Shown here piece after piece: positions 3,547 through 26,486 of a DNA stretch of 32,000 bases. Numbering within the stretch: the stretch's first letter is position 1; every line of letters starts with the position of its first letter. The position numbers and the translations under genes were made by a program. Source of the DNA: Sphingobacteriaceae bacterium (GTDB lineage Bacteria > Bacteroidota > Bacteroidia > Sphingobacteriales > Sphingobacteriaceae); contig OZ257246.1 of NCBI GenBank assembly GCA_965279595.1, positions 779,767-811,766 of the forward strand, in the 5' to 3' direction. Below the pieces are notes generated by a model. The model had not been told where the DNA came from. It ran no database searches and saw nothing but the letters and a program-made list of their open reading frames with translations.

Positions 3547-4125
3547 CTAAGTCAGTTTATTTTTCACTGAATTCAGGTTTTGCATTTTCACTGGATTCCG
3601 GTATTGTTTTGAATAAGAAGTAAAAAACTGATGTGCTTCTAAAAAGCGTACTTGTAAATGATTCCACTGTTCTATGTTTTCAATCAATCCAAAAGTTTTT
3701 AATTCCAAATAAAGGTTATTACCAACTTTTTCAAAATCATTGCGACCCAAATAATCTAGATCAGCATCACAAATAATTTCTTCTAGTTTGTTTTGTGGTG
3801 TTTGAGGAATTCGAGTTGCCATTATCATTCCACAAATAATTTCAATTTCATTTTCAGAATAATCAAAGTTCGGTAATATTTCACGAGCCAATTCACAACT
3901 TTTTATTTCATGTTCAACTGATTGATAAATGAACCCAATATCATGCAACCATGCAGCGGTGATCAATAAATTTGTATCGCTTCGACTTGTATTTTCTTCA
4001 ACAGAAATTCTTTGCACGGCTTCAACTACATCTATAGTATGTTCAACGCTATGATATGTGAAGTCAGGAGAGAGTTCTGTTCTCAATTGGTTTAACATAA
4101 AGGTGGATAGTTGTTCTAGTTCCAT
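3547..4125 (-). CDS. HD-domain metal-dependent phosphohydrolase
   Basis: The 192-aa product contains YHSVEHTIDV ... AAWLHDIGF ... ICDADLDYLG, the H...HD...D pattern of the HD superfamily. Confidence 0.8.
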   Translation of the reverse strand: MELEQLSTFMLNQLRTELSPDFTYHSVEHTIDVVEAVQRISVEENTSRSDTNLLITAAWLHDIGFIYQSVEHEIKSCELAREILPNFDYSENEIEIICGMIMATRIPQTPQNKLEEIICDADLDYLGRNDFEKVGNNLYLELKTFGLIENIEQWNHLQVRFLEAHQFFTSYSKQYRNPVKMQNLNSVKNKLT

Positions 4126-5148: not shown

Positions 5149-5847
5149 TTAAAAACTAAACATTGATAAAATCTCTTCCCTATGTGCTCTGCTTACATCA
5201 ACTTTATCTCCATTATGCATTACTAAAAACAAACCCTCATTTTTTTTGAGTTCACTAATCTCTTTTAAATTCACAATATGTGATTGATGACAACGAAAGA
5301 ATAAAGTTGATGGCAACAAGTCCTCAAAATATTTAATATTCTTACTCACCACTTTATTTGAATTGCCGTAATAAACAGTAGTATAATTCCCTTCTCCTTT
5401 TAAATGAATGATATCTTTCACATTCACATATGTATATCCGGTTAAATCTGCTAATGCAATTTTTCCATTTTCATCAATTGGCTTTTTTACTTGTGCACTC
5501 AACTTATCAATTGCCAATTGCAATTCTTCAATGATAATTGGTTTTAATAAATAATCCTCTGCTTTAATTCTCAATGCTTTGATGGCATGCTCCGAACTGG
5601 CTGTAGTAAAAATGACAACAAAATCACGACTCGGAAATGTCTCTAATAAATCAAACCCAGTACCACCGGGCATGTCAATATCCAACAAAACAACATCAGG
5701 CTTTTTTTGATTAATTAGTTTGATGCCATCTAATGCTGTTCTCGCAGTTCCTACAATTTCTGCATTTTGTATGAAATTTTGAATCATTAGCTCTAAACTT
5801 TCTATCGCATCTAATTCGTCATCAATTATAATTAACTTAAGATTCAT
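5149..5847 (-). CDS. LytR/AlgR-family response regulator (REC + LytTR DNA-binding domain)
   Basis: The receiver domain reads LIIIDDE ... DVVLLDIDMPGGTGFDLL ... VIFTTA ... DYLLKP. The C-terminal LytTR-like part reads IHLKGEGNYTTVY ... FFRCHQSHIVNL. There is a 1-nt gap to the upstream kinase gene. Confidence 0.9.
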   Translation of the reverse strand: MNLKLIIIDDELDAIESLELMIQNFIQNAEIVGTARTALDGIKLINQKKPDVVLLDIDMPGGTGFDLLETFPSRDFVVIFTTASSEHAIKALRIKAEDYLLKPIIIEELQLAIDKLSAQVKKPIDENGKIALADLTGYTYVNVKDIIHLKGEGNYTTVYYGNSNKVVSKNIKYFEDLLPSTLFFRCHQSHIVNLKEISELKKNEGLFLVMHNGDKVDVSRAHREEILSMFSF

Positions 5848-5848
5848 A

Positions 5849-8767
5849 CTAATTAACTAGGGTTTTATAAGGCAAAGATAATTTTATTAGTGTTCCAAAA
5901 ACATTTCCCTTTGCATCAATTCTATTTATTTGCTCAAAAACATAAGGGAGTTTTACTTCTTTATTAATCAATTCCAATCTCTTTTTTGTGATAGCAACAC
6001 CATAGCTTGATTTAATAGGATTTTCACTTTTATTGATTGCTTGAGCATTTTTAAATCCAATACCATTGTCAATAATTTCACAAATAAGAATTGAATTGTG
6101 GAATGTAAAAACAACTTTAAGCTCTCCTTTTCTTTCTTTCAATTCTTTCAATCCATGAATAATCGCATTCTCTACGAATGGCTGTATTAACATACTTGGA
6201 ATTTGGATATTCTCCACAACACTATTATTTGAAATTGAAATCTCGTATTCAAATTGATCTTTAAATCGTAATTTTTCTAACTCTAAATAGGTATTCAATA
6301 ATTTTATTTCACTATCAATTGGAATCCATTTTAAGTTAGCATGATCTAAACTTAAACGCATCAATCTACTGAACCTTCCCAAATACTTAATGGCATTCAA
6401 TTGATCAGATTTTAGGATAAAATTTTGAATACTATTCAAAGCATTAAAAATAAAATGAGGATTAACTTGTGCAAGTAGCGCCTGCTGCTCATTTAAAAGC
6501 ATCTCTTCTTTCTCTCTATTTCTTTGCTGCTCGTTTCGAATTCGAAATCTGAAATAAAAATAAATCAAAAGAGAAATAAGAGATGTCATTAAACCATAAA
6601 ACCAATAAGTTTTCCAGAAAGGAGGAGGAATGGTAAAACGATACTGTTCCTTATTTTGAGATGTAAAACCATCTTCATTGATAGCAACTACTTCAAAAGT
6701 GTAGGTGCCAAAATCCAAAGAATTGAATTCTACATTATTTTGATTTAGCTTTCTCCAAGTAGAGTCCAAGCCTTTTAATCTATAATTAAATTTTATATTT
6801 TGACCAGCTCGATAGGCAACTGCATTGAAGTGAAATTGGATTCTTTGATCATCATAAGTAAATGGATAATTCAATCTTGGTGAAATATTACTTTGATTTA
6901 AGGTTGAAATATTTATCAATTCAATTTTAGGTTTTTTGTTGTTGATTAAATTAATTGTTGAAGGAAAAGCAATCAGTTTGTTTTGAGCAACAACATAAAC
7001 TTTTCTATTTTGTAAATATATTTTCCGAATATCGTTAAATGGAAATCCATTCTCCACCGACAAATAACTTAGTTTCGGTTTATTAATATTATTCAAATCA
7101 ATTCTCACAACACCTTTCTGCGTGGCAGCCCAAACAACATTACCTTCAATGGCTAAATCATTAACCATATTGTTTTGAACAGATTCTCCCAAAGTAAGCT
7201 CATTAACTTTTTCATCTTGAATAATAAATATTCCTAAGCCTAAAGATGAAAGAACAATACTTCCATTTTCAATTTCTTTAATATTATTTATTCGAATATT
7301 TATTTTGTCTTTTTTATAATACTCCTTTTGCTTTCCTCTTAAATTGACTATTCCATCATTTACTCCAACCCATATTGTTTTTTTTGAATCAATATATAAA
7401 GCAAAAGGTGCAGTTTCTAATAATGTTAGATTTTCAGGTGGCAAATTCAAATGTTTAATTTCAATTTTTTTAACGTTTGAAACATTGGCTGCTACCCAAT
7501 AATTACCATCAGAAGTAATACACTTCCCCAATCCACCTAATTGCTTTAGTGTTTTTCCATTCTCATTGAGCAGATATAATCCATCAGAAAAACCAACTAA
7601 TAATCGTTGATGCAATTGATCAAAGTATAAATCATTACAAATAGAAATTTGTGATGTATTGGAATTAAATGTTTCACTTGTAAACTTTGTAATTCCATCT
7701 TCTTGAATTAATATTCTATTTTTGTTAGTGGCAATAAATAATTTTTTTTGCCTATCTCCAGTAATCTCTTTGATGTCTTCATTAATTTTTAATTCAGGAA
7801 TATTGACGTATTCAATTTCAATTTTAGGAATATAATAAACTCCTTGGTTGTAAGTGCTAAACCAATAACCCCCTTCAAAATCTTGTTGCACATCAGTTAT
7901 GGTTTGGTTGCTAAAATAGCAACGACCATTTTTTTGATTAATGGTTTCTGAAGGCTTATAAAGCTTAACTCCATTGTAAAAGAAGCAAAGCCAAAGATCA
8001 CCATTAGCATCCAAATACATATTTAAAATTGGAACATCAAATTCATTGCTTGCAATTATTCTACCATTTTTTAAAACATAAATCCATTTATCAAAACTGA
8101 CTATTGTTTCCCCATTTTTTCTTTGAGCAGAAAAAGTTTTGAAATTCAAGGTGGTAAAACCCTTCTTAATATTTTGAAATTGATAAGGTAAAACTTCGGC
8201 AATGTTTTTTCTTAATAGTGGTGGACTGAAAATAAATGCAGATGCATTACTGATTTTATCATACCTCAACTCACTGATTAACGTGCTATCATATTCGAAT
8301 TTTTCGTTATTGATTATTTTGATAAACCCTTTGCTGTTTGTACCTATTACAAACGGAACTTCCTCTTTAAACTGAATATTTAAAATATTTGAAGAAGCTG
8401 GTAACTTGATTAAATTTTGAAGTTTTTTATTTAAATGATAGGACTCAAATTTATTAGCTTTGAAATAATGCAATGTTTTGTCATTGCAAACTGCCCATAT
8501 CACCCCTTTCGGACTAAGGAATAATTTATAAACCAAATTATCACTTAATCCATCATTTACTGTATAATGTTTAAAGCTGGTACCATTGAAACGTGCAATT
8601 CCTCTATCAGTTCCAAACCACAAGTAACCTTGCGGATCAGCAATTACATCATAAACTTCATTGCTAGGCAGTCCATTGTTTGGATTGTATTGATAATAGA
8701 TAGGATCTTGAGCAATACAAAATTTGACAGATGAAATTAAAAATACAAATGCTAAAACTTTATTCAC
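5849..8767 (-). CDS. Sensor histidine kinase with a periplasmic two-component-regulator beta-propeller / Y_Y_Y domain and a LytS/YehU-type kinase core
   Basis: The 972-aa product has a signal peptide and a long ectodomain with repeated LWFGT / W.GT..G propeller-like motifs. A TM helix (YWFYGLMTSLISLLIYFYF) follows, then NPHFIFNALNSIQ (LytS-type His_kinase) and an HATPase_c end (DNGIGF). The start codon is GTG at 8765-8767. The only upstream in-frame ATG is followed by a stop. Confidence 0.9.
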   Translation of the reverse strand: MNKVLAFVFLISSVKFCIAQDPIYYQYNPNNGLPSNEVYDVIADPQGYLWFGTDRGIARFNGTSFKHYTVNDGLSDNLVYKLFLSPKGVIWAVCNDKTLHYFKANKFESYHLNKKLQNLIKLPASSNILNIQFKEEVPFVIGTNSKGFIKIINNEKFEYDSTLISELRYDKISNASAFIFSPPLLRKNIAEVLPYQFQNIKKGFTTLNFKTFSAQRKNGETIVSFDKWIYVLKNGRIIASNEFDVPILNMYLDANGDLWLCFFYNGVKLYKPSETINQKNGRCYFSNQTITDVQQDFEGGYWFSTYNQGVYYIPKIEIEYVNIPELKINEDIKEITGDRQKKLFIATNKNRILIQEDGITKFTSETFNSNTSQISICNDLYFDQLHQRLLVGFSDGLYLLNENGKTLKQLGGLGKCITSDGNYWVAANVSNVKKIEIKHLNLPPENLTLLETAPFALYIDSKKTIWVGVNDGIVNLRGKQKEYYKKDKINIRINNIKEIENGSIVLSSLGLGIFIIQDEKVNELTLGESVQNNMVNDLAIEGNVVWAATQKGVVRIDLNNINKPKLSYLSVENGFPFNDIRKIYLQNRKVYVVAQNKLIAFPSTINLINNKKPKIELINISTLNQSNISPRLNYPFTYDDQRIQFHFNAVAYRAGQNIKFNYRLKGLDSTWRKLNQNNVEFNSLDFGTYTFEVVAINEDGFTSQNKEQYRFTIPPPFWKTYWFYGLMTSLISLLIYFYFRFRIRNEQQRNREKEEMLLNEQQALLAQVNPHFIFNALNSIQNFILKSDQLNAIKYLGRFSRLMRLSLDHANLKWIPIDSEIKLLNTYLELEKLRFKDQFEYEISISNNSVVENIQIPSMLIQPFVENAIIHGLKELKERKGELKVVFTFHNSILICEIIDNGIGFKNAQAINKSENPIKSSYGVAITKKRLELINKEVKLPYVFEQINRIDAKGNVFGTLIKLSLPYKTLVN

Positions 8768-11205: not shown

Positions 11206-11277
11206 TGGCCCCGACCAGAATCGAACTGGTATCAAATGTTTAGGAAACATCTATTCTATCCGTTGAACTACGGCGCC
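11206..11277 (-). tRNA. tRNA-Arg (anticodon CCT), 72 nt, no encoded CCA
   Basis: I folded the cloverleaf by hand from the minus strand. Acceptor GGCGCCG/CGGGGCC, D-arm GTTC-AACGGATA-GAAT, anticodon arm GATGT-TTCCTAA-ACATT, 4-nt variable loop, T-arm ACCAG-TTCGATT-CTGGT, discriminator A. There is one G4:G69 mismatch in the acceptor stem. Confidence 0.9.
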
Positions 11278-12704: not shown

Positions 12705-14636
12705 ATGAAAAAATTATTTACGCTCCTCTTATTCATTACTTCATTTCATTTTTCAAGTTTGGCACAAAGTCAGGCAGCATTAGATAGCATGGAACGTACA
12801 CTCAGCAGCAATGCCCATGATACTATCAAGCTAAAAACACTTGGTGATTTAAGTTGGATGTATGGCTTTAGCAATTTTGAAAAGTCATTGCAATTTGGAC
12901 AACAAGAGTTGGCTTTGGCGGAAAAGCTGAATGATAAAGCAAGTATCGCATTGGCATATAGTGATATTGGTATTGCTTATACCCGTATGAGTAAACTTGA
13001 TGAATCATTGCAAGCACACTTAAAATCATTGGCTATTAGGAATGAATTGGGATTGAAAGAAAAAGCAGCAGGTTCTTACTCCAACATTTCATTAATTTAT
13101 AAACAGCTTGGCAAATACAAAGAATCTACCGATTATATGTTACGTGCTTTGAAAGTATATGAAGAAGTGAAAGATGAAAAGAAACAAGCATTGGTATTGG
13201 GTAATTTATCGAATCTGATTTTGAATATGGACCAATTAGATTTGGCAGCAAGTTATATTCGCAAAGGAATTAAGTTGGCAGAAAAAACACAATCCTACCA
13301 AACGCTTGCCAATTTATATACAAGTTATAGCAGCTATTTTTATAAAACAAAAAAATACGATTCAGCTTTGGTATATAATAGTTATGCTATTGAAGTTTAT
13401 ACTGGATTGAATAATTATACTGACTTAGCAGGTTCGTTGAACTCGCGTGGACAAATAGAAATAGAGCTTAAAAAATATCCAATTGCGATGAAATCTTTTG
13501 CTGAATCATTAGACATTCGTAAAGCTTTGGGTGATGAATTAGGTATTGGTACGTGTCATAAAAATATCTGTTTCTGTTTAATGAAATTGAAAAGATTTGA
13601 TGAAGCAATGGCACATATTGATACTAGTATTGAAATTTTCAAACGTACTGAATCACGAAATTATTTAAAAGAAGCTTACCTTTTTGTAATGGATATCTAT
13701 CAAGATAAAAATGATTATAAAAATGCAATGCTCTATTATAAATACTCTGAAGAATTGGAAGATAGCATCATTAATACAGAAACTACCAACAAAATGAATG
13801 AGCTGCAAGTTCAATACGAAACAGAAAAAAAAGAGCAGCAAATAAAAATTCAATCGCTTGAGTTAAACAGAAAAAATATTTTCATTGGCGTAATTGTTGC
13901 CATACTAGCCTTAACAATTTTTATCGCAACTCTTATTTATAATAGACGCAAACTCAAACAAGATGCGAAACTACAAGCAGAAATAATTAAACAACAAGAC
14001 TTAGCATCACGCGGAATTATTGAAGCAGAAGAGAATGAAAGAAAAAGGATTGCAGGTGATTTACATGATGGTGTTGGGCAATTGTTTTCTGCAGTAAAAA
14101 TGAACCTTTCAAGTATTAGTGAACAAATTAAAATAGATGATCAAAAAGTAAAAACATTGTATGATAAAACCATTGACATGGTTGATGAATCATGCAAAGA
14201 AGTGCGAAGCATTTCACATAACATGATGCCGAATGTTTTATTAAAATCTGGCTTAAGTTCTGCAGTACGTGAATTCATTAGTAAAATTGATGCAGATAAA
14301 ATTAAAATCAATTTAGAAACTTTCGGATTAAATGATCGATTAGATTCAAATATTGAAACAGTTTTGTATCGTGTAATTCAAGAATCTGTTAACAATGTAA
14401 TTAAGCATGCTGATGCCAATCAATTAGATATTCAATTGAGCAAAGACCAGGAAGAAATTACAGTTACTATTGAAGACAATGGCAAAGGCTTTGATACTAA
14501 CAATCAAGATAATTTTGAAGGTATTGGTTTGAAGAACATCAAAACCAGAGTAGAGTTTTTAAAAGGTACAGTTGAGTGGGATTCAACTATTGATAGAGGA
14601 ACTGTTGTTTCTATACATATTCCAATTACAGCCTAA
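12705..14636 (+). CDS. TPR-sensor histidine kinase (signal peptide, TPR ectodomain, coiled coil, TM, HisKA_3 + HATPase_c)
   Basis: The signal peptide is MKKLFTLLLFITSFHFSSLAQ, followed by TPR-like units and the TM helix IFIGVIVAILALTIFIATLIY. The HisKA_3 H-box is ERKRIAGDLHDGVGQ, and the ATPase motifs are NNVIKHA ... DNGKGF ... GIGLKNI. Confidence 0.9.
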   Translation: MKKLFTLLLFITSFHFSSLAQSQAALDSMERTLSSNAHDTIKLKTLGDLSWMYGFSNFEKSLQFGQQELALAEKLNDKASIALAYSDIGIAYTRMSKLDESLQAHLKSLAIRNELGLKEKAAGSYSNISLIYKQLGKYKESTDYMLRALKVYEEVKDEKKQALVLGNLSNLILNMDQLDLAASYIRKGIKLAEKTQSYQTLANLYTSYSSYFYKTKKYDSALVYNSYAIEVYTGLNNYTDLAGSLNSRGQIEIELKKYPIAMKSFAESLDIRKALGDELGIGTCHKNICFCLMKLKRFDEAMAHIDTSIEIFKRTESRNYLKEAYLFVMDIYQDKNDYKNAMLYYKYSEELEDSIINTETTNKMNELQVQYETEKKEQQIKIQSLELNRKNIFIGVIVAILALTIFIATLIYNRRKLKQDAKLQAEIIKQQDLASRGIIEAEENERKRIAGDLHDGVGQLFSAVKMNLSSISEQIKIDDQKVKTLYDKTIDMVDESCKEVRSISHNMMPNVLLKSGLSSAVREFISKIDADKIKINLETFGLNDRLDSNIETVLYRVIQESVNNVIKHADANQLDIQLSKDQEEITVTIEDNGKGFDTNNQDNFEGIGLKNIKTRVEFLKGTVEWDSTIDRGTVVSIHIPITA

Positions 14637-14720: not shown

Positions 14721-16631
14721 ATGAAGTATTCCTTATCGCGATTTATATTCTATTTATTCAGTCTCCTTTTTTTTACGCAAACTACTTTTGCTGAAATTGA
14801 CCCTATTGCAGAAAAAAAAGTAACTCAATTATTAATTCAATCTTCACAAAACAGATCAGAATTGTTGAGGCCTGCCATAAATCAGGCATTAACTGCCTAT
14901 TCGTACGCTGAAAACATTTCAGATACTTCACAAATAAAATGTTGCATTGCCATTGCCAATCTCTACAATGACATAGGCAATTATGATTCGAGTTTGTATT
15001 TTTCTCAAATTGGAAAAACAGTAGCTAGTAAAATAAATTCAAAAAGTGATTTAGCTGCCATTTACAATGCCATGGGAGTTACTTATATCAATCAACTCAA
15101 ATTCAAACAAGCAATGCAACACTATTTTCTAGCATTGAAAATTTTTGATGAATTAAAAATGCCAATGAGATGTGCAGATGAATACAGCAATATTGCATAT
15201 GTACATTCTCAAATGGGCAATTTCAAAGAGTCAAGACGATTCCAAGAAAAAGCATTACATATTTATCAAGAAAATAAATACAAAAAAGGAGAAGCTCAAT
15301 CATATAATAATTTAGGAATTCTATTTGCTGAAAATGGAAGATTAAATGAAAGTTTATATTTTTTCAAGCTTTCTAAAAATATAAGAGAAAAAATAAATAG
15401 CAAAAGCGATTTGTGTTGGACTTACAATAACATAGGTGGTATTTATACCATGATTGAAAAATATGATTCGGGGTTATACTATTTGAATAAAGCAGCTGAA
15501 CAATTCAAACTAACAGGAAATACTAATGGAATGGCAGCAGCCTTAGGTAATATTGGCTCAGTGAATAAAGATTTGAAAAAATACAAAGAGGCAATTGTGT
15601 TTTTTCATCGTGGATTAAACGTTGCTAAAGAAAATAAATACTATGATTTAATTGAAAATACTTATGCGGGTTTAATTGATGTTTATAAATTAACCAATAA
15701 CTATAAAACTGCTTTACTTTATGCCGATTCATTAGTGGCTTTGAAAGACAGTATTTATGATAAGGAGAGCAGCAAGAAAATTGCAGAAATGCAAGCTTTA
15801 TACGAAACGGAAAAAGCAAGTAGCGAAAACAAATTATTAGCAAAAGAAAACACAATTCAGAAATTAGAAATTGGTAGAAGGAAAATCTATATCATAACAT
15901 TAATTGTTTTGTTTATACTCATTACCATTATATATATTTCTTATTACAATAGATATAAATTCAAAAAAGAAAGTCAGTTGAGTATGGCTTTGTTTAAGCA
16001 ACGTGAAGAATCTTCAAAAGAAATTATTAAAGCGGAAGAAAATGAAAGAAGAAGAATTGCAACTGATTTGCATGATGGATTAGGTCAATTGTTTTCAGCT
16101 GTAAAATTAAACCTATCCGGCATTAGTGATAATATTTCATTTAATGATAATAACCAAAAAGAAGTATTTGAAAAAACTTTGAGTTTGGTAGATGAATCAT
16201 GTAAAGAGATTAGAGAAATATCACACGCCATGATGCCGAATGTATTATTGAAATCTGGCCTAGCCTCTGCCATCAGAAATTTCATTCAAAAAATAGACCA
16301 CCAAAAATTAAAAGTAAACTTAGAAACAACTGGTTTAGATCAACGTTTAAACCCTGAAGTAGAAACTATTCTATATAGAGTAATTCAAGAGTGCATAAAC
16401 AATGTAATAAAACATTCAAAAGCTAATCAATTAGACATTCAATTAATAAAAGATGAAGATGGCATGAATGTTACCATTGAAGACAATGGTGTTGGGTTTG
16501 ATAAAAACACCATTCAATCAGAAGGATTAGGGTTGAAAAATATTTATTCTAGAATAAATTATTTAAACGGAACCGTTGAATGGGATTCAGCAGAAGGTAA
16601 GGGGACATTGGTAGCTATCTTCATTCCTTAA
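14721..16631 (+). CDS. TPR-sensor histidine kinase, tandem paralog of 12705..14636
   Basis: The architecture matches the upstream gene: signal peptide, TPR units, TM helix IYIITLIVLFILITIIYISYY, H-box ERRRIATDLHDGLGQ, and ATPase motifs NNVIKHS ... DNGVGF ... GLGLKNI. The kinase cores are highly similar by eye, while the ectodomains are divergent. Confidence 0.9.
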   Translation: MKYSLSRFIFYLFSLLFFTQTTFAEIDPIAEKKVTQLLIQSSQNRSELLRPAINQALTAYSYAENISDTSQIKCCIAIANLYNDIGNYDSSLYFSQIGKTVASKINSKSDLAAIYNAMGVTYINQLKFKQAMQHYFLALKIFDELKMPMRCADEYSNIAYVHSQMGNFKESRRFQEKALHIYQENKYKKGEAQSYNNLGILFAENGRLNESLYFFKLSKNIREKINSKSDLCWTYNNIGGIYTMIEKYDSGLYYLNKAAEQFKLTGNTNGMAAALGNIGSVNKDLKKYKEAIVFFHRGLNVAKENKYYDLIENTYAGLIDVYKLTNNYKTALLYADSLVALKDSIYDKESSKKIAEMQALYETEKASSENKLLAKENTIQKLEIGRRKIYIITLIVLFILITIIYISYYNRYKFKKESQLSMALFKQREESSKEIIKAEENERRRIATDLHDGLGQLFSAVKLNLSGISDNISFNDNNQKEVFEKTLSLVDESCKEIREISHAMMPNVLLKSGLASAIRNFIQKIDHQKLKVNLETTGLDQRLNPEVETILYRVIQECINNVIKHSKANQLDIQLIKDEDGMNVTIEDNGVGFDKNTIQSEGLGLKNIYSRINYLNGTVEWDSAEGKGTLVAIFIP

Positions 16632-19723: not shown

Positions 19724-21382
19724 ATGAAAAAGTTAATTTTTATTCTTTCTATTGTTTTAATCGGCTTTAATGCAAATTCACAAGGATTAACCATTAATTC
19801 CACTCAATTGAACTTTGCCAGCACTTTTGAAAATGCAGCCGATAGCCAGTTTATTTCTATTAAAAACAACACTGAAAGTAATATCGTTTTAAAGGAGTTT
19901 AGATTTTACGCTTTCTATAATAGCTATCCATTTTATGTTAAACAGGATACACTAAATATTCTTGCAAACGACTCTGCTGGATTTTATATTTATTTTAAAC
20001 CACTTCATAATGTATTACATAATGCAGAACTTTTTGTAATTACAGAACCATCTATTTATTCATTTTCAATTGATTTAAAAGGTCAGGGTAAATACAGTAA
20101 AACTTATTATAATTCAACAGAAAACAAATCAGAAGAGGATTTGAAAGCGTCCATTAAAACATTGGTTGCACAAGGATATGTTTCCTTAGGTTACAATACT
20201 GCACGTGATAAAATGTTCATGGAGATTGATAATAAATTTGTGAACGGTCAAGGTGCAGGTTCAAATACACTAGAATGTGTATATACAGGCAAATTGGCTT
20301 TTGGATATACAGATAGAACTTCTGCACAAACCAATTTTAACTTCAATACAGAGCACACTTTTCCTCAAGGGTTTTTTAGTCAGAATGAACCTATGCGTTC
20401 AGACTTACACCATTTATTTCCAACCAATGATGCGGCTAATAATAGTAGAAATAACTTTGCTTTTGGTGTAGCTACCTTACCATATCAAAATGATGCTACA
20501 AATACACCTTCACATTTAGGTTCTAATAGCATTTATGAACCAAGGGATACACAAAAAGGCAGAACCGCAAGAGCGATGATGTACTTTGTATTGCGATACC
20601 AGGATTATACAAACTTTTTTGCAACACAGGAATCTATTTTGCGTCAATGGAATGCTACATACCCCCCAAATGCTGTTGATATAGCTAGAAACAATGCCAT
20701 TCAATTGGTACAAAAAAATAGAAATCCATTTGTTGATTATCCTCAATTGGCAGATAGGATTCAGAAAATTGTTGGCACTTCAACTGCGCCTGTTATTAGA
20801 GGAAGTGATTATATTAAAACGATTACTACTTCAGAATTGATAGACACAAATTTGGTTTATCACTTTGAAATTCCTTATGTCAATACAGGAAATACAAGTT
20901 TAACCTTAACTAATTTTAAAAGCACTGACGCTGTTAGTCATTTGACATTAATTGCTGATACCATTCAATTAGCAGCTAATGAGGCTACCAAACTATCTAT
21001 AGATATTCAAACAACTGACACATCAGGATTAATAATTGATAGTATTTTATTTTTGAACAATGGGCAACCTGAATTTTTCATAATCAAGGCTAATATTAAA
21101 AAGACAATTACAATTGGATTTGATTCAAATATTCCCAATTCGGAGATTCAATTTTACCCAAATCCTGTTTTTAACCAAGCAATTATTCAATTAAAATCCA
21201 ATAATTATGTAAATGCGATTTTATTGATAGATGTATTAGGAAAAACGCATCGATTAAGTTTTGAAAAAATTGATTCAAAAAACTTGTTAATAGATTTATC
21301 TCCATTTCATTCTGGAATCTATTGGTTATCAATAAAATCTAACCAAAATACAATCCAAAATCTAAAAATTATTAAAAATTAA
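19724..21382 (+). CDS. Secreted endonuclease I family nuclease with N-terminal Ig-like domain and T9SS C-terminal sorting domain
   Basis: The endonuclease I core reads TEHTFPQGFF ... DLHHLFPTNDAANNSRNN ... RNPFVDYP. The C-terminal roughly 80 aa read FYPNPVFNQAIIQL...IDVLGK...SGIYWLSIKS...KIIKN, which matches the T9SS type A CTD pattern. Confidence 0.85.
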   Translation: MKKLIFILSIVLIGFNANSQGLTINSTQLNFASTFENAADSQFISIKNNTESNIVLKEFRFYAFYNSYPFYVKQDTLNILANDSAGFYIYFKPLHNVLHNAELFVITEPSIYSFSIDLKGQGKYSKTYYNSTENKSEEDLKASIKTLVAQGYVSLGYNTARDKMFMEIDNKFVNGQGAGSNTLECVYTGKLAFGYTDRTSAQTNFNFNTEHTFPQGFFSQNEPMRSDLHHLFPTNDAANNSRNNFAFGVATLPYQNDATNTPSHLGSNSIYEPRDTQKGRTARAMMYFVLRYQDYTNFFATQESILRQWNATYPPNAVDIARNNAIQLVQKNRNPFVDYPQLADRIQKIVGTSTAPVIRGSDYIKTITTSELIDTNLVYHFEIPYVNTGNTSLTLTNFKSTDAVSHLTLIADTIQLAANEATKLSIDIQTTDTSGLIIDSILFLNNGQPEFFIIKANIKKTITIGFDSNIPNSEIQFYPNPVFNQAIIQLKSNNYVNAILLIDVLGKTHRLSFEKIDSKNLLIDLSPFHSGIYWLSIKSNQNTIQNLKIIKN

Positions 21383-21569: not shown

Positions 21570-23402
21570 ATGTTGAGGACGAGTAAAAAACACAACAGAA
21601 AAAAAATTCTTGCAATTCTTGCACTTGCGTTTTTTATGTTAAATAATGCTGGGGTAAGTTTGGCCCAATCAAATAATAATAACGAGAACCCTTATTCAAA
21701 AGAAAATTACTCAGATGCAAAAAAATTGCAACGTGTGGTTTATAATATTATTCAACCATATTTAAAAGGAACAAATTTTTTAGTTGATGTAAAAATTAAA
21801 AAACAGTCATTTGAAGTTGATTCAGCAGGTGTTCAAATAACTGATGTTGATACAGGTATGGCGGTTGATTATTTACCAGGTGTAGCTGATGGCTCCAATG
21901 TTGTAATAAATGATAATGGAGTTTACGCGCCTTTTAATATTGGCAATGGTAAAACAAAAACAGTAGTTATAGTAATGGACACCTGCTATGATTCCAATGC
22001 ATTGGCTTTTATTGACAATTTAGTTAGAAGTACAATTCCATTTGATGCTGCCAACGGTGATAGATTATTGGTACAATCGCAGGTCTTTCCTGCTTCACCA
22101 AATTCATTTCCACCAGTTCAAAAGCCAGTACCTAACGTTGCTTCACTAAGTCCATTCCCTATTCAACAGCAACCTTCTATACAACAAACATTTCCTCAAG
22201 TAACCAAAAATGAAACACCACCTGAAAGTGGTTCATTAAACATGGCAGCTTTGATTCCATACTTGATCATAATTTTGTTGTTCATGCTTTTTGCTTTTGT
22301 TATTTTATATCTTTTGTTAAGACCCAAAAAGAAAAAGCAAAATGAAGAGCTACAATCGATACATCAAAAAATTGAACAATTAGAAAATGCTGCTAGAGCA
22401 CCGATATTAATTCAACATGATGACAACTTAGATAATTATGCAAAGTTGGCGGATATGCGTTCATATGTTACTAAAGAATTTATTAGCAATAAAAATAAAG
22501 TTGCAGATTTATTCAATGAGTGGGTGGAAGTAGATGAAAGTGCTGGTCTTCAAAAAATAGTTAACATTTTAAAAGCTACCAATCCTAAATTATTACCTTT
22601 TTTAAATTCTCATTTATCAAAAGACAATTACCATTATGTTGAAATTTCATTAGATGATAATCCACCATTGGTTCCTGAAGAGCAGCTAAAACATATTGAA
22701 CAATTTAAAAAAGAAATATCCACTTTTAATACAGCACCAAAAACAAAAGAACGAGATATCTTTCATTTCTTAAATCAATTAAATGAACAACAAATCATGT
22801 ATTTGATTAAAGAAGAAAGTGAAGAGTTAGCTGCCATTGTATTGGCTCAATTGAACCCTAAAAGATGTATGAGTATTATCAAAAATTTTGACAGTACTAA
22901 ACAATCAATCATTCTACAAAAAATGAGCAGCATCAATGATTTGTCGGTTGCTGTATATAAAGAAATTGCTTCTTATTTTTCTGCGAAAGCTATGTCAATG
23001 AATGATATGAAATATGTGAGTTTGGATGGATTGAAAACTATTATCAGTTTATTAGATACATTACCTACAACTGAACAGAAAAAATACATTGATGATTTAG
23101 CGGGATATGATTTAGATCTCGCAAGAAAAATTAAAGAGCGCTTCATTACTTTCGAAGAAATACAAGATCAAGATGATTACTTTTTGCAACGTGCATTAGA
23201 AGATGTTGATTCAGGTACCATTGCCAAAGCATTGATCAATGCAAATGAAACAACAGTTAATAAATTAATTAGTCTTCGTCCGAAGAGAGAACAATTATTA
23301 ATTAAATCAGAAATTGATTACAATAAAGATTTATTAATAGAAGAAATTGAGAAAGCTAGAAAAGTCATATTAGATAAATTGAAATTGAACTTAGTTGCAT
23401 GA
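21570..23402 (+). CDS. Bitopic membrane protein with a periplasmic RBM-like N-domain, P/Q-rich linker, TM helix and cytoplasmic FliG-like (middle + C-terminal) domain
   Basis: Signal/anchor helix at aa 12-33. Periplasmic domain at aa ~45-170. P/Q-rich linker at aa ~173-222. TM helix MAALIPYLIIILLFMLFAFVILYLLL followed by RPKKKK (positive-inside). The cytoplasmic region aa ~397-608 reads LIKEESEELAAIVLAQLNPKR... GLKTIISLLDTL... LARKIKERFITFEEIQDQDDYFLQRALEDVDSGTIAKALINA...SLRPKREQLLIKSEID...IEKARKVIL. This runs parallel to the FliG_M and FliG_C signatures (EHPQ-helix region, MFxFE..LDD..iQr.LreVD...la.ALKga, torque helix). Confidence 0.7.
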   Translation: MLRTSKKHNRKKILAILALAFFMLNNAGVSLAQSNNNNENPYSKENYSDAKKLQRVVYNIIQPYLKGTNFLVDVKIKKQSFEVDSAGVQITDVDTGMAVDYLPGVADGSNVVINDNGVYAPFNIGNGKTKTVVIVMDTCYDSNALAFIDNLVRSTIPFDAANGDRLLVQSQVFPASPNSFPPVQKPVPNVASLSPFPIQQQPSIQQTFPQVTKNETPPESGSLNMAALIPYLIIILLFMLFAFVILYLLLRPKKKKQNEELQSIHQKIEQLENAARAPILIQHDDNLDNYAKLADMRSYVTKEFISNKNKVADLFNEWVEVDESAGLQKIVNILKATNPKLLPFLNSHLSKDNYHYVEISLDDNPPLVPEEQLKHIEQFKKEISTFNTAPKTKERDIFHFLNQLNEQQIMYLIKEESEELAAIVLAQLNPKRCMSIIKNFDSTKQSIILQKMSSINDLSVAVYKEIASYFSAKAMSMNDMKYVSLDGLKTIISLLDTLPTTEQKKYIDDLAGYDLDLARKIKERFITFEEIQDQDDYFLQRALEDVDSGTIAKALINANETTVNKLISLRPKREQLLIKSEIDYNKDLLIEEIEKARKVILDKLKLNLVA

Positions 23403-24460
23403 AAATAACAAAACACCTATTTGTATTTATTTTTACATTAGTTGCTTTAAATGCTGCAGCTCAAAAAAAATATGACCGTGAATCAAAGCTGACTGAGTTT
23501 AACGATTTATTGATTAGTGTATCCGCCAGCATCAATGATATTCCATTTGCAGCTAGACGAGTAGCTTTATTTGATATTACTTCTCGCTCTGACAATCCTG
23601 TTATTATTAGTCAAAAACAATTGCGTTTACAATTTGAAGATGTTTTGAAAAAGAAAGCGTTTACAGTTGTATCTGTTCCGGAATTTGAACGAAAAATGAT
23701 CATGAAAATCAATGGTAATGATTCATTGATAAAAATTGATAACCAAAGTGCCATTAGCAATTTTCGTCAACAGCCTGAAAGCTTAGCAGAGCTTTGCAGA
23801 AAATACGGTATTCAAAGTTTGATTGATTGCAATTTGTTTTTTGATAGTGTGAATGGATTTGTCATGAATATTCGATTTGTAAATGCATCAACAAGAGAAG
23901 TGCTTTGGAATGAAACGCTATATTCAAGAGTAAAAGAATCTACTTTTAAAGTTCGTAAACGAATTAATTTTGGAGCTGGGTTAACAGTGATAAACTCTTT
24001 CCAAGAAAATACAACTGTTTATTCATCAAATACAATTACTACTTCTTTCTTAGCTGAATATACCTATGACCAAAATATGTCTGCTGATAATACAGCATTT
24101 TTTGGATTGTTCGCACGTTTAAATTATTACAACTTGCGATTAGCCACAAGTGCAGTCAGTGAAAATAATAAACTAGGGAGCGCCTTTTTCCCAGGAGTAG
24201 GTATTCGTGGTTCAAAATTATTTTATAAAAAGAAACAAACTCAAGGTTACTGGTTTGAATATCAATTAGGCGGTGGAGTTACTATTTACAATAAATTGTT
24301 TGGTCAAGTTAACCAAGCAATGAACATAAGTTTAACAAAGAATTTCGGAATTGGAATGATGATGGAGTATAACTTAATTGCTCCGAAGTATTCTAAAGGT
24401 GTTACTTCTGTTTCATTTAATAATATTAATTATGCGTTTTCCCTTGCTTATAAATTCTAA
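23399..24460 (+). CDS. Outer-membrane beta-barrel protein with a CsgG/LpoB/FlgO-like periplasmic N-domain (tentative)
   Basis: The signal peptide is MKITKHLFVFIFTLVALNAAAQ. The N-domain reads RRVALFDITSRS ... LAELCRKYGIQSLIDCNLFFDSVNGFVMNIRFVNASTREVLWNETL. The C-terminal half has alternating aromatic/hydrophobic beta-strand patterning and ends in ...NYAFSLAYKF (terminal Phe, an OMP signature). An ATGA overlap joins it to the upstream gene. Confidence 0.6.
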   Translation: MKITKHLFVFIFTLVALNAAAQKKYDRESKLTEFNDLLISVSASINDIPFAARRVALFDITSRSDNPVIISQKQLRLQFEDVLKKKAFTVVSVPEFERKMIMKINGNDSLIKIDNQSAISNFRQQPESLAELCRKYGIQSLIDCNLFFDSVNGFVMNIRFVNASTREVLWNETLYSRVKESTFKVRKRINFGAGLTVINSFQENTTVYSSNTITTSFLAEYTYDQNMSADNTAFFGLFARLNYYNLRLATSAVSENNKLGSAFFPGVGIRGSKLFYKKKQTQGYWFEYQLGGGVTIYNKLFGQVNQAMNISLTKNFGIGMMMEYNLIAPKYSKGVTSVSFNNINYAFSLAYKF

Positions 24461-24998
24461 ACAAACAAAACTGTTTAGACTTTGCAATGTTGCAATTGTT
24501 GGCTTAAGTTTTCTGTTGTTAAATGGAGTTGAACTTCATGCTCAAAGTCCATTTCAAAAAGTTGACACTACGAAAGGTCGAGTAAAAATTAAATATAAAA
24601 ACCAAAATACTTCTATTGATTTGGTACTTGACCCAAACGATCAAGAATTTAATTTAGAATTTAATGGTAGAGATTTAGTAAGCAGTTTAATTATTGTTGA
24701 CAGTACAAAAAAAAGCGGCAAAGATGTAAATTCCTTAACAAGTGCGGAGAATAGCAAGATGCTTCGATTTTATCGTTTATCACAAGATGAATATTATAAA
24801 AAAGCATATGATAGAGCATTATCCTATGTTGATAGCTCTTTATATATTGCAGAAACATCAGAAGCATTGGGTCTGAAAGGAAGTATATTTTTTACAAAGG
24901 GAGAAATTGATCGTGCAAAAAGAAATTGGGAAATGGCGAAGAAAATTGATCCGAATTTTAAAACCCCAGTTATATATCAAAAAAATAGTCGCCAATGA
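24432..24998 (+). CDS. Small secreted TPR-repeat protein
   Basis: I prefer the ATG at 24432 over the ORF-track start at 24378. It gives a normal signal peptide (MRFPLLINSKQTKLFRLCNVAIVGLSFLLLNGVELHAQS), whereas the longer start overlaps the previous gene by 83 nt. The C-terminus is TPR-like: YYKKAYDRALSYVD...ALGLKGSIFFTKGEIDRAKRNWEMAKKIDPNF. Confidence 0.65.
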   Translation: MRFPLLINSKQTKLFRLCNVAIVGLSFLLLNGVELHAQSPFQKVDTTKGRVKIKYKNQNTSIDLVLDPNDQEFNLEFNGRDLVSSLIIVDSTKKSGKDVNSLTSAENSKMLRFYRLSQDEYYKKAYDRALSYVDSSLYIAETSEALGLKGSIFFTKGEIDRAKRNWEMAKKIDPNFKTPVIYQKNSRQ

Positions 24999-25825
24999 GA
25001 TTTTCAATTATAAGTTTGTTTCTTGTTTTGTTTTCCTTAGGATTATTGGCCTTAGGTATTTGTGATGTTATTGGCATTGTACACATAAAAAAAGCATTAC
25101 CTTTTTTATACGTCAACCGATTTTTAGATTTACCTAGTTTCTTAATAGTTGCAGGTGGAACTTTGAGTAATGCATTTATAATATACCCTCCACATTTATT
25201 AGCAACATCTTTTAGTAAATTATTTTTATTGTTCAGTCAGTCAAAAGATAACCAAAAACAATTAGAAAAAGATATTGATTCAGTTGTGTCATGGGCAAAT
25301 GAATATAAAACAAACCGAATTGAATTTCTTAGAACAATTCAAGATAGACAAACACATGATTTCTCAGCATATTTATTTTCATTAGTTAGCACTAATTATT
25401 CAATTGATGAAGTAAAAATTATTGGAGAAGCTAGTATCAACGAGCATCATAATAAATATTTAAAAATTGCTGATGTATTTAAAAACATGGGTAACTCTGG
25501 ACCAGCATTTGGTATGTTCGGAACTTTGTTTGGTTTAGTTTATATGCTTAGTAGTTTAGATGACCCTTCTAAAATTGGACCTGGTTTAGCAACAGGTTTA
25601 TTAGTTACACTTTATGGAGTTTCTATGACTCACTTGCTATTTTTCCCAATGTCGAAAAAAATATTGCTTAATGCAGAATATAATTTAATAAGAGAAGAAA
25701 TGTTATTAGAGGGAATTGAATTAATTGCTGACAATAAATCTCCGCTTTTTATTAAAGATAAATTACAGACCTATTTAGATCGAGCTTATACTATGAAGCA
25801 ATTGAAGAACGAGAATAAAAAGTAA
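24995..25825 (+). CDS. MotA/PomA-type stator proton (ion) channel subunit (MotA/TolQ/ExbB superfamily)
   Basis: The profile shows four TM helices with a roughly 100-aa cytoplasmic loop between TM2 and TM3. Motifs are FLDLPSFLIVAGGTL (MotA TM2 motif), GPAFGMFGTLFGLVYML (TM3 with Pro) and GLLVTLYGVSMTHLLFFPMSKKI (TM4 with Pro). An ATGA overlap joins it to the upstream gene. Confidence 0.85.
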   Translation: MRFSIISLFLVLFSLGLLALGICDVIGIVHIKKALPFLYVNRFLDLPSFLIVAGGTLSNAFIIYPPHLLATSFSKLFLLFSQSKDNQKQLEKDIDSVVSWANEYKTNRIEFLRTIQDRQTHDFSAYLFSLVSTNYSIDEVKIIGEASINEHHNKYLKIADVFKNMGNSGPAFGMFGTLFGLVYMLSSLDDPSKIGPGLATGLLVTLYGVSMTHLLFFPMSKKILLNAEYNLIREEMLLEGIELIADNKSPLFIKDKLQTYLDRAYTMKQLKNENKK

Positions 25826-25829
25826 TTCG

Positions 25830-26486
25830 ATGTCGAGAAATATAAAACATCGATCAGAAGAACATGAAGAAAATTGGTTGATCACGTATGCAGATACCAT
25901 CACTAATTTACTTGCGTTTTTTATATTGATAGTTTCGATGTCAAGAATTGATCAAAACATTTGGGCTGAAGTAAGTAAGGGCTTGAAATCAAAATTAAAT
26001 CAGAAAGAAGTTAAGACCAGTTTAAATACAGTGAAAGATCGCTTGGATTCTCTTTTAAAAAAAGAAGAACAAGCTGGTTTGATTGATGTGAAAATGGATC
26101 AAGATGGTATTAAAATGAATATCTTGAGCAGAGGTGTTTATAATTCAGGTGAAGCAGAATTGTTGGATGAGGGCAAGGGAATAGTTGACCGCGTAATTAA
26201 TGCAATAAATTCTACTAAAAGCAATACTTTTAAAATAGATGTAGAAGGACATACTGATGATGTGCCTATCAAAAATGATTTCTATAAATCAAATTGGGAA
26301 CTTTCAACTTCACGTGCTTCAAATGCTATCCAATATTTAATAGATAAAGGAATAAGTCCTGATAGATTAAAAGCTTCTGGTTATGGCGATACCAAGCCAC
26401 TATTCCCTAACAAAGATGTTAAGGGCAATCCTATTGATAAAAACAGAGCATTCAATAGAAGGGTTGTAGTTCGTATATATTACTAA
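25830..26486 (+). CDS. MotB-type stator subunit (TM with conserved Asp + OmpA-like peptidoglycan-binding domain)
   Basis: The N-terminus reads EENWLITYADTITNLLAFFILIV, the MotB channel helix with its critical Asp in the YAD context. The C-terminal OmpA_C-like part reads VEGHTDDVPI...SNWELSTSRASNAIQYL...LKASGYGDTKPL...NRAFNRRVVVRI. There is a 4-nt gap after the MotA-like gene. Confidence 0.88.
   Translation: MSRNIKHRSEEHEENWLITYADTITNLLAFFILIVSMSRIDQNIWAEVSKGLKSKLNQKEVKTSLNTVKDRLDSLLKKEEQAGLIDVKMDQDGIKMNILSRGVYNSGEAELLDEGKGIVDRVINAINSTKSNTFKIDVEGHTDDVPIKNDFYKSNWELSTSRASNAIQYLIDKGISPDRLKASGYGDTKPLFPNKDVKGNPIDKNRAFNRRVVVRIYY

Follow-up and report, generated by a model that had tools for sequence, protein, structure and literature searches.

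A natural FliF-FliG fusion encoded in one operon with flagellar-type stator subunits in a Sphingobacteriaceae bacterium

Within a 32,000-nucleotide stretch of DNA from a Sphingobacteriaceae bacterium (contig OZ257246.1, read on the forward strand; the whole stretch is called the window below), we have analyzed a gene whose product combines, in a single polypeptide, a periplasmic ring-building domain of the FliF type, a transmembrane (TM) helix and FliG. The evidence supports its being a natural FliF-FliG fusion. The gene lies at 21570..23402 on the + strand, its product is collinear with FliF followed by FliG, and it belongs to a conserved operon of five genes that also encodes MotA- and MotB-type stator subunits. 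We consider it reasonably probable that the fusion protein and MotAB together constitute a non-flagellar, ion-driven rotor-stator module, that is, a bare torque generator of the flagellar type.

FliF and FliG in one polypeptide

The open reading frame (ORF) is real, encodes 610 residues and has exactly the coordinates given in the original prediction, which was made from the sequence alone; its assignment rests on the ORF listing, Pfam, matches in the Protein Data Bank (PDB), an AlphaFold2 (AF2) model, Foldseek and hhalign. The AF2 model was built with an alignment of 111 members of the fusion family, over which all column counts given below were also made, and has a mean predicted local distance difference test score (pLDDT) of 82.3; an alignment of 12 sequences gave an unusable model (mean pLDDT 44.5). 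In the 111-sequence model, the layout originally proposed is recovered in the same order, i.e., an N-terminal hydrophobic segment, a periplasmic domain, a linker rich in Pro and Gln, a TM helix and the FliG region. All coordinates below refer to the window, and all features of the fusion gene are on the + strand.

The resemblance of the C-terminal part to the middle and C-terminal domains of FliG goes far beyond chance. Pfam places FliG_M at residues 407–479 (E = 2.6e-9) and FliG_C at residues 510–604 (E = 3.1e-17), both above the gathering scores, and a phmmer search of PDB sequences matches Thermotoga maritima FliG (1lkv) over residues 398–603 at E = 5e-18, followed by the FliG proteins of four further species. 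Together with column counts, these matches delimit the middle domain at residues 397–484 (22758..23021) and, together with hhalign, the C-terminal domain at residues 510–608 (23097..23393), in which the torque helix spans residues ∼569–584. FliG_C is found by Pfam in all of 75 relatives and FliG_M in 70 of them. The score of the NCBIfam equivalog model for fliG (TIGR00207) is not reached, at 83.9 bits against a cut-off of 226.7.

A claim that the N-terminal domain of FliG is absent, made from the sequence alone, turned out to be wrong. When the family profile is aligned by hhalign, residues 326–608 correspond to residues 6–316 of E. coli FliG (probability 99.2%, E = 9.4e-20); the top Foldseek matches are full-length FliG structures (e.g., 8wiw_3, E = 1.2e-9), with alignments of ∼300–311 columns to FliG chains of 310–331 residues (for 3hjl, 311 columns to a chain of 321 residues); and FliG_N exceeds the Pfam threshold at the equivalent place in relatives (residues 304–390 of P0035, with 37.6 bits, and residues 314–404 of P0031). 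Because of the hhalign alignment, the full-length Foldseek coverage and the FliG_N matches in relatives, we assign an N-domain equivalent to residues 326–396 (22545..22757). In the AF2 model, the entire predicted cytoplasmic region (residues 257–609) is helical, mostly with pLDDT >90.

The proposed match to the torque helix also holds: phmmer against PDB sequences and hhalign both align R573 with R281 and E581 with D289 of E. coli FliG. R573 is basic in 109 of the 111 family members (Arg in 98, Lys in 11). The acidic position E581 is not conserved (Glu in 44/111), and S580, which aligns with D288, and the positions of K264 and R297 are uncharged in the window protein, a column count having been made for S580 only. 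The FliM-binding EHPQR motif is not kept, EHPQ being aligned with EESE and only the Glu being conserved (84/111 members), and the column of E. coli FliG R160 holds Gln in the window protein and Arg in 50 of the 111 members.

The periplasmic domain (residues 44–173; 21699..22088) is assigned as RBM3-like, i.e., as a counterpart of the third ring-building motif (RBM) of FliF, by AF2, by matches of PF08345 in relatives, by Foldseek and by hhalign. Its predicted alpha-beta-beta-alpha-beta pattern is borne out by the AF2 model, where the order alpha1, beta1, insertion, beta2, alpha2, beta3 is made up of a helix at residues 44–61, a strand at 70–78, the insertion, a strand at 128–136, a helix at 142–155 and a strand at 165–170, the core having pLDDT values of 84–97. 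A likeness to both FliF and SctJ had been suggested; the FliF part of this suggestion stands and can be narrowed to RBM3, whereas matches to SctJ proteins (EscJ, PrgK) are weak, with Foldseek E values of 0.3–0.6. Ahead of these, and after FliG, Foldseek ranks structures of the FliF MS-ring, S-ring and RBM3/collar (8t8p_A at E = 0.015, 8z5v, 8z4d, 8zdt and 6sd1), with E values of 0.015–0.2. It should be noted that the RBM resemblance is significant at the level of the family and not in the window sequence by itself: PF08345 (YscJ_FliF_C) matches the latter over residues 129–173 at a non-significant E of 0.54, and is found in 42 of the 75 relatives (best E = 7.1e-8), always in the periplasmic domain and always aligned to the C-terminal part of the model.

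Two hhalign tests against FliF alone extend the correspondence. In the first, residues 140–173 align with E. coli FliF 396–429 (E = 2.4e-4), with the motif RGD...V....F in common; the G163-D164 motif corresponds to the FliF RGD, D164 being invariant and G163 present in 108 of the 111 members. In the second, residues 240–324 align with FliF 458–552 (probability 83%, E = 9.3e-6), that is, with the second TM helix (TM2) and the cytoplasmic tail, and the alignment stops exactly at the C-terminus of FliF. The TM helix (residues 225–250; 22242..22319), a helix in the AF2 model that is followed by RPKKKK, is thus equated with FliF TM2, the hhalign match beginning at FliF residue ∼458. It is preceded by the disordered linker (residues 174–224; 22089..22241), recognized by its Pro- and Gln-rich sequence and by pLDDT values <50. 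Residues 285–324 (22422..22541) resemble in hhalign the C-terminal tail by which FliF binds the N-domain of FliG; W318 within this segment is Trp in 96 of the 111 members. When E. coli FliF and FliG are artificially strung together, residues 140–608 align to residues 396–868 of the combined sequence in one continuous alignment (probability 99.6%, E = 1.2e-24), a score dominated by FliG, so that the independent support for the FliF part comes from the two FliF-only tests.

Between beta1 and beta2, an insertion (residues 79–127; 21804..21950) with low pLDDT in the monomer model takes the place of the FliF beta-collar, with a length of ∼50 residues against ∼105 in E. coli. As judged by column counts, it carries a motif that is nearly invariant in the family, LPGLP (LPGVA in the window protein), with P103 in 109 and G104 in 107 of the 111 members, and a forced end-to-end hhalign alignment puts it, weakly, opposite the FliF collar (probability 28%). 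RBM1 and RBM2 are absent: the periplasmic part of ∼130 residues holds a single RBM, and PF01514 matches neither the window protein nor any of the 75 relatives. By sequence comparison, the fusion protein therefore looks like the last third of FliF (RBM3 with a shortened collar, TM2 and the FliG-binding tail) joined end to end to a complete FliG, and the gene like a fliF-fliG pair joined head to tail from which RBM1, RBM2 and part of the collar have been deleted.

The N-terminus had been described as a signal or anchor helix, and of these a cleaved signal peptide is the likelier. The segment (residues 1–33; 21570..21668; helical at residues 7–30 in the AF2 model) has a strongly basic start and a 12-residue hydrophobic core, followed by a predicted signal peptidase I site, SLA↓QS. 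The residue after the predicted site is Gln in 82 of the 111 members, and Gln also follows the predicted sites of three exported neighbors in the window (AAA↓QK, LHA↓QS and ANS↓QG; within 21570-24998 and 19724-21382). Since most Bacteroidetes signal peptidase I substrates expose an N-terminal Gln (the Q-rule; PMC5837995), this pattern argues for cleavage and suggests that most family members come from Bacteroidota. The mature fusion protein would then cross the membrane once, the N-terminus facing outward and the C-terminus inward.

The operon and its conservation

Through five genes, from 21570 to 26486, start and stop codons overlap or nearly abut. The stop codon of the fusion gene is overlapped by the start of a gene for an uncharacterized protein of 353 residues (23399..24460, + strand), in which a signal peptide (AAA↓QK) precedes an N-terminal domain predicted, by its sequence pattern, to be alpha/beta and a C-terminal half ending in YKF. 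From sequence features, we predict this protein to be an outer-membrane beta-barrel. It belongs to no Pfam or NCBIfam family and has no sequence relatives in the PDB; its homologues in Fibrobacteria (hhalign probability 89%, E = 2.4e-6) and a third clade are encoded at the corresponding place in the operon. As a side observation, the motif FVMNIRFVNASTREVLWNET at residues 154–173 of this protein can be likened to the last beta-hairpin of the E. coli CsgG and LpoB periplasmic domains, a lead only, at an hhalign probability of 1–4%; the match to a CsgG/LpoB-type fold covers just 17–20 residues, and the corresponding comparison with FlgH gives nothing.

The third gene (24432..24998, + strand) encodes a small exported tetratricopeptide repeat (TPR) protein with the signal peptide LHA↓QS, identified by weak Pfam TPR matches and by profile matches to canonical TPR repeats in the PDB. 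Its listed ORF begins at a TTG codon at 24378, the ATG at 24432 being the likelier start. In other clades, the protein is a lipoprotein.

Overlapping the stop codon of the TPR gene is the start of the gene for a MotA-type stator A subunit of 276 residues (24995..25825, + strand; PF01618, E = 6e-16), whose top ten PDB matches consist entirely of flagellar MotA or PomA structures (E values down to 1e-25). The last gene (25830..26486, + strand) encodes a MotB-type stator B subunit of 218 residues with PDB matches to MotB and PomB. It has a plug (MotB_plug, E = 1.7e-15), a TM segment with a conserved Asp (YADTIT, which aligns with the stretch of MotB that bears the Asp) and, for binding peptidoglycan, an OmpA-like domain (OmpA, E = 2.5e-17). 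NCBIfam flagellar stator models match both subunits with scores below the equivalog cut-offs.

The fused architecture is the rule in the family, since an exhaustive profile search with the N-terminal 396 residues yields 155 clusters at 50% identity (102 of them at E ≤1e-10), nearly all of which are 580–690 residues long. A word-indexed search gave 29 proteins, most of them ∼70% identical and from Bacteroidota/Sphingobacteriales metagenome-assembled genomes (MAGs); one 26%-identical relative has the same architecture. Further searches of this type with alignments as queries added no protein to the 29. Species-representative genomes contain seven loci in Bacteroidota/Sphingobacteriales and eight in Fibrobacteria, and the order of the five genes is identical in Bacteroidota and Fibrobacteria MAGs. 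Directly upstream of the operon in the window (19724-21382, + strand) is the gene for a secreted endonuclease I with a C-terminal sorting domain of the type IX secretion system (T9SS), which places the host among the T9SS-bearing Bacteroidota. Upstream of the operon in Fibrobacteria, ORFs of 120 residues that were suspected of being CheY-like proved to be helix-turn-helix or transposase-like.

A metagenome scan with a distant subgroup added 30 loci in two clades. In a marine/saline clade (L016–L036, L044 and L045; e.g., L036:450-14799), the fusion gene again lies side by side with those for the small TPR lipoprotein, MotA and MotB, here inside a larger conserved cluster. The cluster starts with genes for a protein of ∼975 residues (with a BLASTP link to a TonB-dependent receptor), a DUF4402 protein, proteins of 216 and 177 residues, a second DUF4402 protein and a protein of 277 residues, and ends with those for a protein of ∼1000 residues with a TPR module, the fusion protein, the small TPR lipoprotein, MotA and a long MotB in which a SPOR domain is added to the plug and OmpA domains; a homologue of the 353-residue protein is absent from it. 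In the other clade (L037–L043, ∼35% GC; e.g., L037:9848-13637), a fusion protein of 674 residues is encoded with a homologue of the 353-residue protein and the TPR protein, followed by a MarR-type regulator and a TonB-dependent receptor. Among the partners, only the small TPR protein recurs, as judged by alignment, in each of the four clades.

When 33 E. coli flagellar and chemotaxis proteins were compared by BLASTP with all ORFs of the window and of 45 related loci with 8–10 kb flanks (i.e., with these regions and not with whole genomes), only FliG, MotA and MotB were matched, apart from one generic receiver domain. Four of the operon genes, the TPR gene being left out, were compared with ∼71%-identical orthologues for their proportions of synonymous (pS) and nonsynonymous (pN) differences: pS is 0.66–0.81, i.e., saturated, and pN is 0.16–0.27, and these four genes are thus kept by purifying selection and are not relics.

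A rotor-stator module and its alternatives

The presence of motA and motB beside the fusion gene in one compact operon makes the idea of a self-contained ring-forming rotor more plausible. In the rotor-stator module that we favor, the fusion protein would become a single-pass inner-membrane protein upon cleavage of its signal peptide, and its RBM3-like domains would pack side by side in the periplasm into a ring, following the example of FliF RBM3 in the S-ring, thereby setting a ring of FliG N-, middle and C-terminal domains directly beneath the membrane. Stator units of the MotA5B2 type, from the same operon, would anchor to peptidoglycan via MotB, conduct ions through the channel with the conserved Asp and push on the torque helix of the FliG C-domain (R573), such that the ring turns. 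The result would be a bare and probably one-directional rotor-stator pair, with no FliM/FliN switch, type III export gate, rod, hook or filament. With neither FliM and FliN nor the EHPQR motif, switching is not expected; nor is export, given that RBM1, RBM2 and the export gate are missing. The small TPR protein and the predicted outer-membrane protein might provide a periplasmic scaffold or bushing, or might be the load on which rotation acts.

A number of observations weigh against such a module. Three of its essential steps, namely ring formation, contact between MotA and FliG, and rotation, are ones that we infer, and we can name no output or load for the proposed motor. The collar is about half as long as that of FliF and is poorly modeled by AF2. 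At the presumptive interface, only the position of R281 is conserved out of the FliG residues K264, R281, D288, D289 and R297. The loop residues of MotA that canonically pair with FliG are R90 and E98 in E. coli, corresponding to R88 and E96 in PomA; the MotA proteins of the family have Lys (Bacteroidota) or Gln (Fibrobacteria) at the R88 position, and the positions aligned with E96 and E97 are not acidic (Ile and Gln), with Asp and Arg nearby. Moreover, loci of the L037–L043 clade have no motA or motB within 10 kb of the fusion gene, and the absence of other flagellar genes holds for the window and the related loci, not for the host genomes elsewhere.

Going one step further, we tentatively propose, with somewhat less confidence than a balanced judgment would need, that the family represents a free-standing, ion-driven rotary motor of flagellar ancestry that operates without a flagellum, in bacteria that build none (mostly Bacteroidota and their relatives), and in which a ring of fusion proteins is spun by MotAB and drives a process in the cell envelope via the TPR and outer-membrane proteins. 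In the marine clade, the output of the motor may pass through the larger cluster that includes the DUF4402 proteins. Depending on where its FliG and MotA fall in the respective trees, the system could be a reduced descendant of a flagellar motor, or a surviving relative of a rotor that predates the export apparatus and the filament.

The main rival to a rotor is a static docking platform. Here, the ring would be held in place by the TPR and outer-membrane proteins, and FliG would only recruit and activate MotAB, which would then deliver a Tol-Pal- or Ton-like force to the envelope without any spinning, for the purpose of outer-membrane maintenance, transport or cell-wall remodeling. We regard this as unlikely, though deserving of serious attention. 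In the operon, a motor of the 5:2 type indeed comes with a TPR protein of the periplasm, an OmpA-like domain that binds peptidoglycan and what is predicted to be an outer-membrane protein, a part list similar to that of Tol-Pal, a trans-envelope force transducer that also works with a TPR protein (CpoB). The additional SPOR domain of the marine-clade MotB, a type of domain that binds septal peptidoglycan, and the poor conservation of most of the canonical torque-interface charges point in the same direction. However, the stator subunits belong to the flagellar type rather than to that of TolQR or ExbBD, in that PomA/MotA are matched best and the plug is there; the operon lacks a periplasm-spanning partner such as TolA or TonB; and a complete FliG with a nearly invariant torque-helix Arg is precisely the known rotating partner of MotA.

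Alternatively, the hosts might encode flagella elsewhere, the fusion protein being a specialized FliF/FliG paralogue within or beside a true basal body. The flagellar gene search was confined to the window and 45 loci rather than whole genomes, some lineages in or near these phyla are flagellated, and source databases label several family members as "flagellar motor switch protein FliG", all of which would fit this explanation. Nevertheless, we find it quite improbable. The fusion protein lacks RBM1 and RBM2, which in FliF house the export gate, and has not kept the FliM-binding EHPQR motif; of the 33 flagellar and chemotaxis queries, only FliG, MotA and MotB are represented in the window and the 45 loci; the host of the window has a T9SS-sorted protein encoded next door; and the Gln after the signal-peptide site in 82 of the 111 members is a trait specific to Bacteroidetes, a phylum that, as Bacteroidota, scores as largely non-motile (PMC12199754).

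That the operon is a decaying remnant of an ancestral flagellar cluster, without present function, is effectively refuted. Relic flagellar genes are known in non-motile lineages (PMC12199754), but here none of the five ORFs is disrupted, two phyla share the gene order and four clades its core, synonymous sites are saturated, with pN at 0.16–0.27, and specific motifs are nearly invariant over 111 diverged members. Least credible of all is a Zorya-like anti-phage defense built on a MotAB-like motor, for although MotB matches the PADLOC ZorB models at E = 3e-19, which reflects general MotB similarity, PADLOC finds no ZorA match for MotA and no match for the other four operon proteins, there are no equivalents of ZorC, ZorD or ZorE, and MotA, being of normal length, lacks the long tail that ZorA has.

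The interest of the family is high because the torque-generating core is found isolated in a non-flagellar setting, where its mode of action and its purpose are inferred. It is a conserved, testable example of a torque-generating rotor and stator pair with nothing of the export or axial machinery, and, with one rotor gene and two stator genes, would provide a minimal experimental system for structural and single-molecule studies of how MotA drives FliG. If the ring rotates, the flagellar torque generator would for the first time be seen to serve anything other than turning a flagellum. The family would also bear on whether a rotor-stator core can exist and serve alone, a question central to models of flagellum evolution.

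Relation to known systems and the surrounding genes

Compared with the flagellar core of FliF, FliG and MotA5B2 or PomA5B2, the system has the same RBM3-type domain, TM2 and FliG-binding tail, the same three FliG domains with the torque-helix Arg, and the same type of stator with plug, channel Asp and OmpA-like anchor, and its parts are collinear with fliF followed by fliG. Flagellar FliF has two TM helices, with both termini in the cytoplasm, and forms a ring of ∼33–34 subunits. Here, FliF and FliG are one polypeptide, TM1 is replaced by an apparently cleaved signal peptide, RBM1 and RBM2 are absent, the collar has about half the length, and the EHPQR motif of flagellar FliG is not kept. Unlike at flagellar loci, there are no fliM, fliN, export-gate, rod, hook or filament genes nearby, their place being taken by the genes for the predicted outer-membrane protein and the small TPR protein. 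To our knowledge, Bacteroidota are not known to build flagella.

The closest known case, and a smaller one, is a natural FliF-FliG fusion of Chlamydiaceae. At ∼330 residues, it has an RBM2-like and one further RBM-like domain, no SpoIIIAG-like (RBM3) domain, and a homologue of only the FliG middle domain, and it has been discussed in relation to the injectisome, not MotAB (Bergeron, 2016, PeerJ; PMC4768692). As in the present family, a shortened FliF is joined to a cytoplasmic part that resembles FliG, and the bacteria concerned are not considered flagellated; going by the published description, the present fusion protein differs in its length of 610 residues, in having kept RBM3 and all three domains of FliG (N-terminal, middle and C-terminal), and in being encoded together with MotAB. 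Engineered FliF-FliG fusions of Salmonella and Vibrio are reported to assemble rings (PMC6079021, PMC10941966 and PMC11481574). In these, too, FliF is covalently joined head to tail to FliG, and one such fusion, PDB 8z4d, is among the structures matched here; unlike the present protein, they are laboratory constructs with a full-length FliF with three RBMs, and act within a complete flagellar system.

With SctJ (EscJ, PrgK) and SpoIIIAG, the fusion protein shares the alpha-beta-beta-alpha-beta ring-building motif, and with SctJ also the succession of signal peptide, periplasmic domain and C-terminal TM helix. It differs from SctJ in having no lipobox, and neither SctJ nor SpoIIIAG carries FliG; SpoIIIAG is not among the Foldseek matches listed. 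With GldLM, ExbBD-TonB, TolQR-TolA and ZorAB, the proposed system would have in common a motor of the MotAB family that is coupled to an envelope process other than swimming. GldLM, ExbBD, TolQR and ZorAB, however, pass force on via the B-subunit or via a TonB/TolA-like arm, and none of them uses a FliG ring; unlike these 5:2 motors, the present system has both a stator of the flagellar subtype and FliG, the partner that such a stator is known to have in the cytoplasm. A MotA/TolQ/ExbB, OmpA and TPR set implicated in cellulose adhesion by Fibrobacter was considered as a possible relative and found to be unrelated, being an ExbB/ExbD/TonB cluster without FliG.

Full-text literature searches found no description of the fusion family, the members of which are labeled "FliG", "MotE" or hypothetical in the source databases. 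The searched parts of a 2025 classification of MotAB homologues make no mention of Bacteroid-, Fibrobacter or non-flagellated hosts, and name FliG once, as the canonical rotor partner.

Elsewhere in the 32-kb window, the genes are for regulators, peptidases and housekeeping proteins, with no further flagellar gene among them. A scan for promoters and terminators gave fewer promoter-like sites than in shuffled sequence, the consensus used being unsuited to Bacteroidota. Two adjacent genes (12705-14636 and 14721-16631, both on the + strand) encode proteins with the same domains, a TPR region followed by a histidine kinase with HisKA_3 and HATPase_c. On the opposite strand, a 610-residue protein (1586-3418, − strand) combines a TPR region with a class III adenylate/guanylate cyclase domain, its gene adjoining those for a tandem universal stress protein (585-1457) and an HD-domain protein (3547-4125), and 5149-8767 (− strand) holds a sensor histidine kinase of the Reg_prop/Y_Y_Y type (972 residues) together with its LytTR response regulator. 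Rfam finds a single tRNA gene in the window, at 11206-11277 (− strand), and nothing else.

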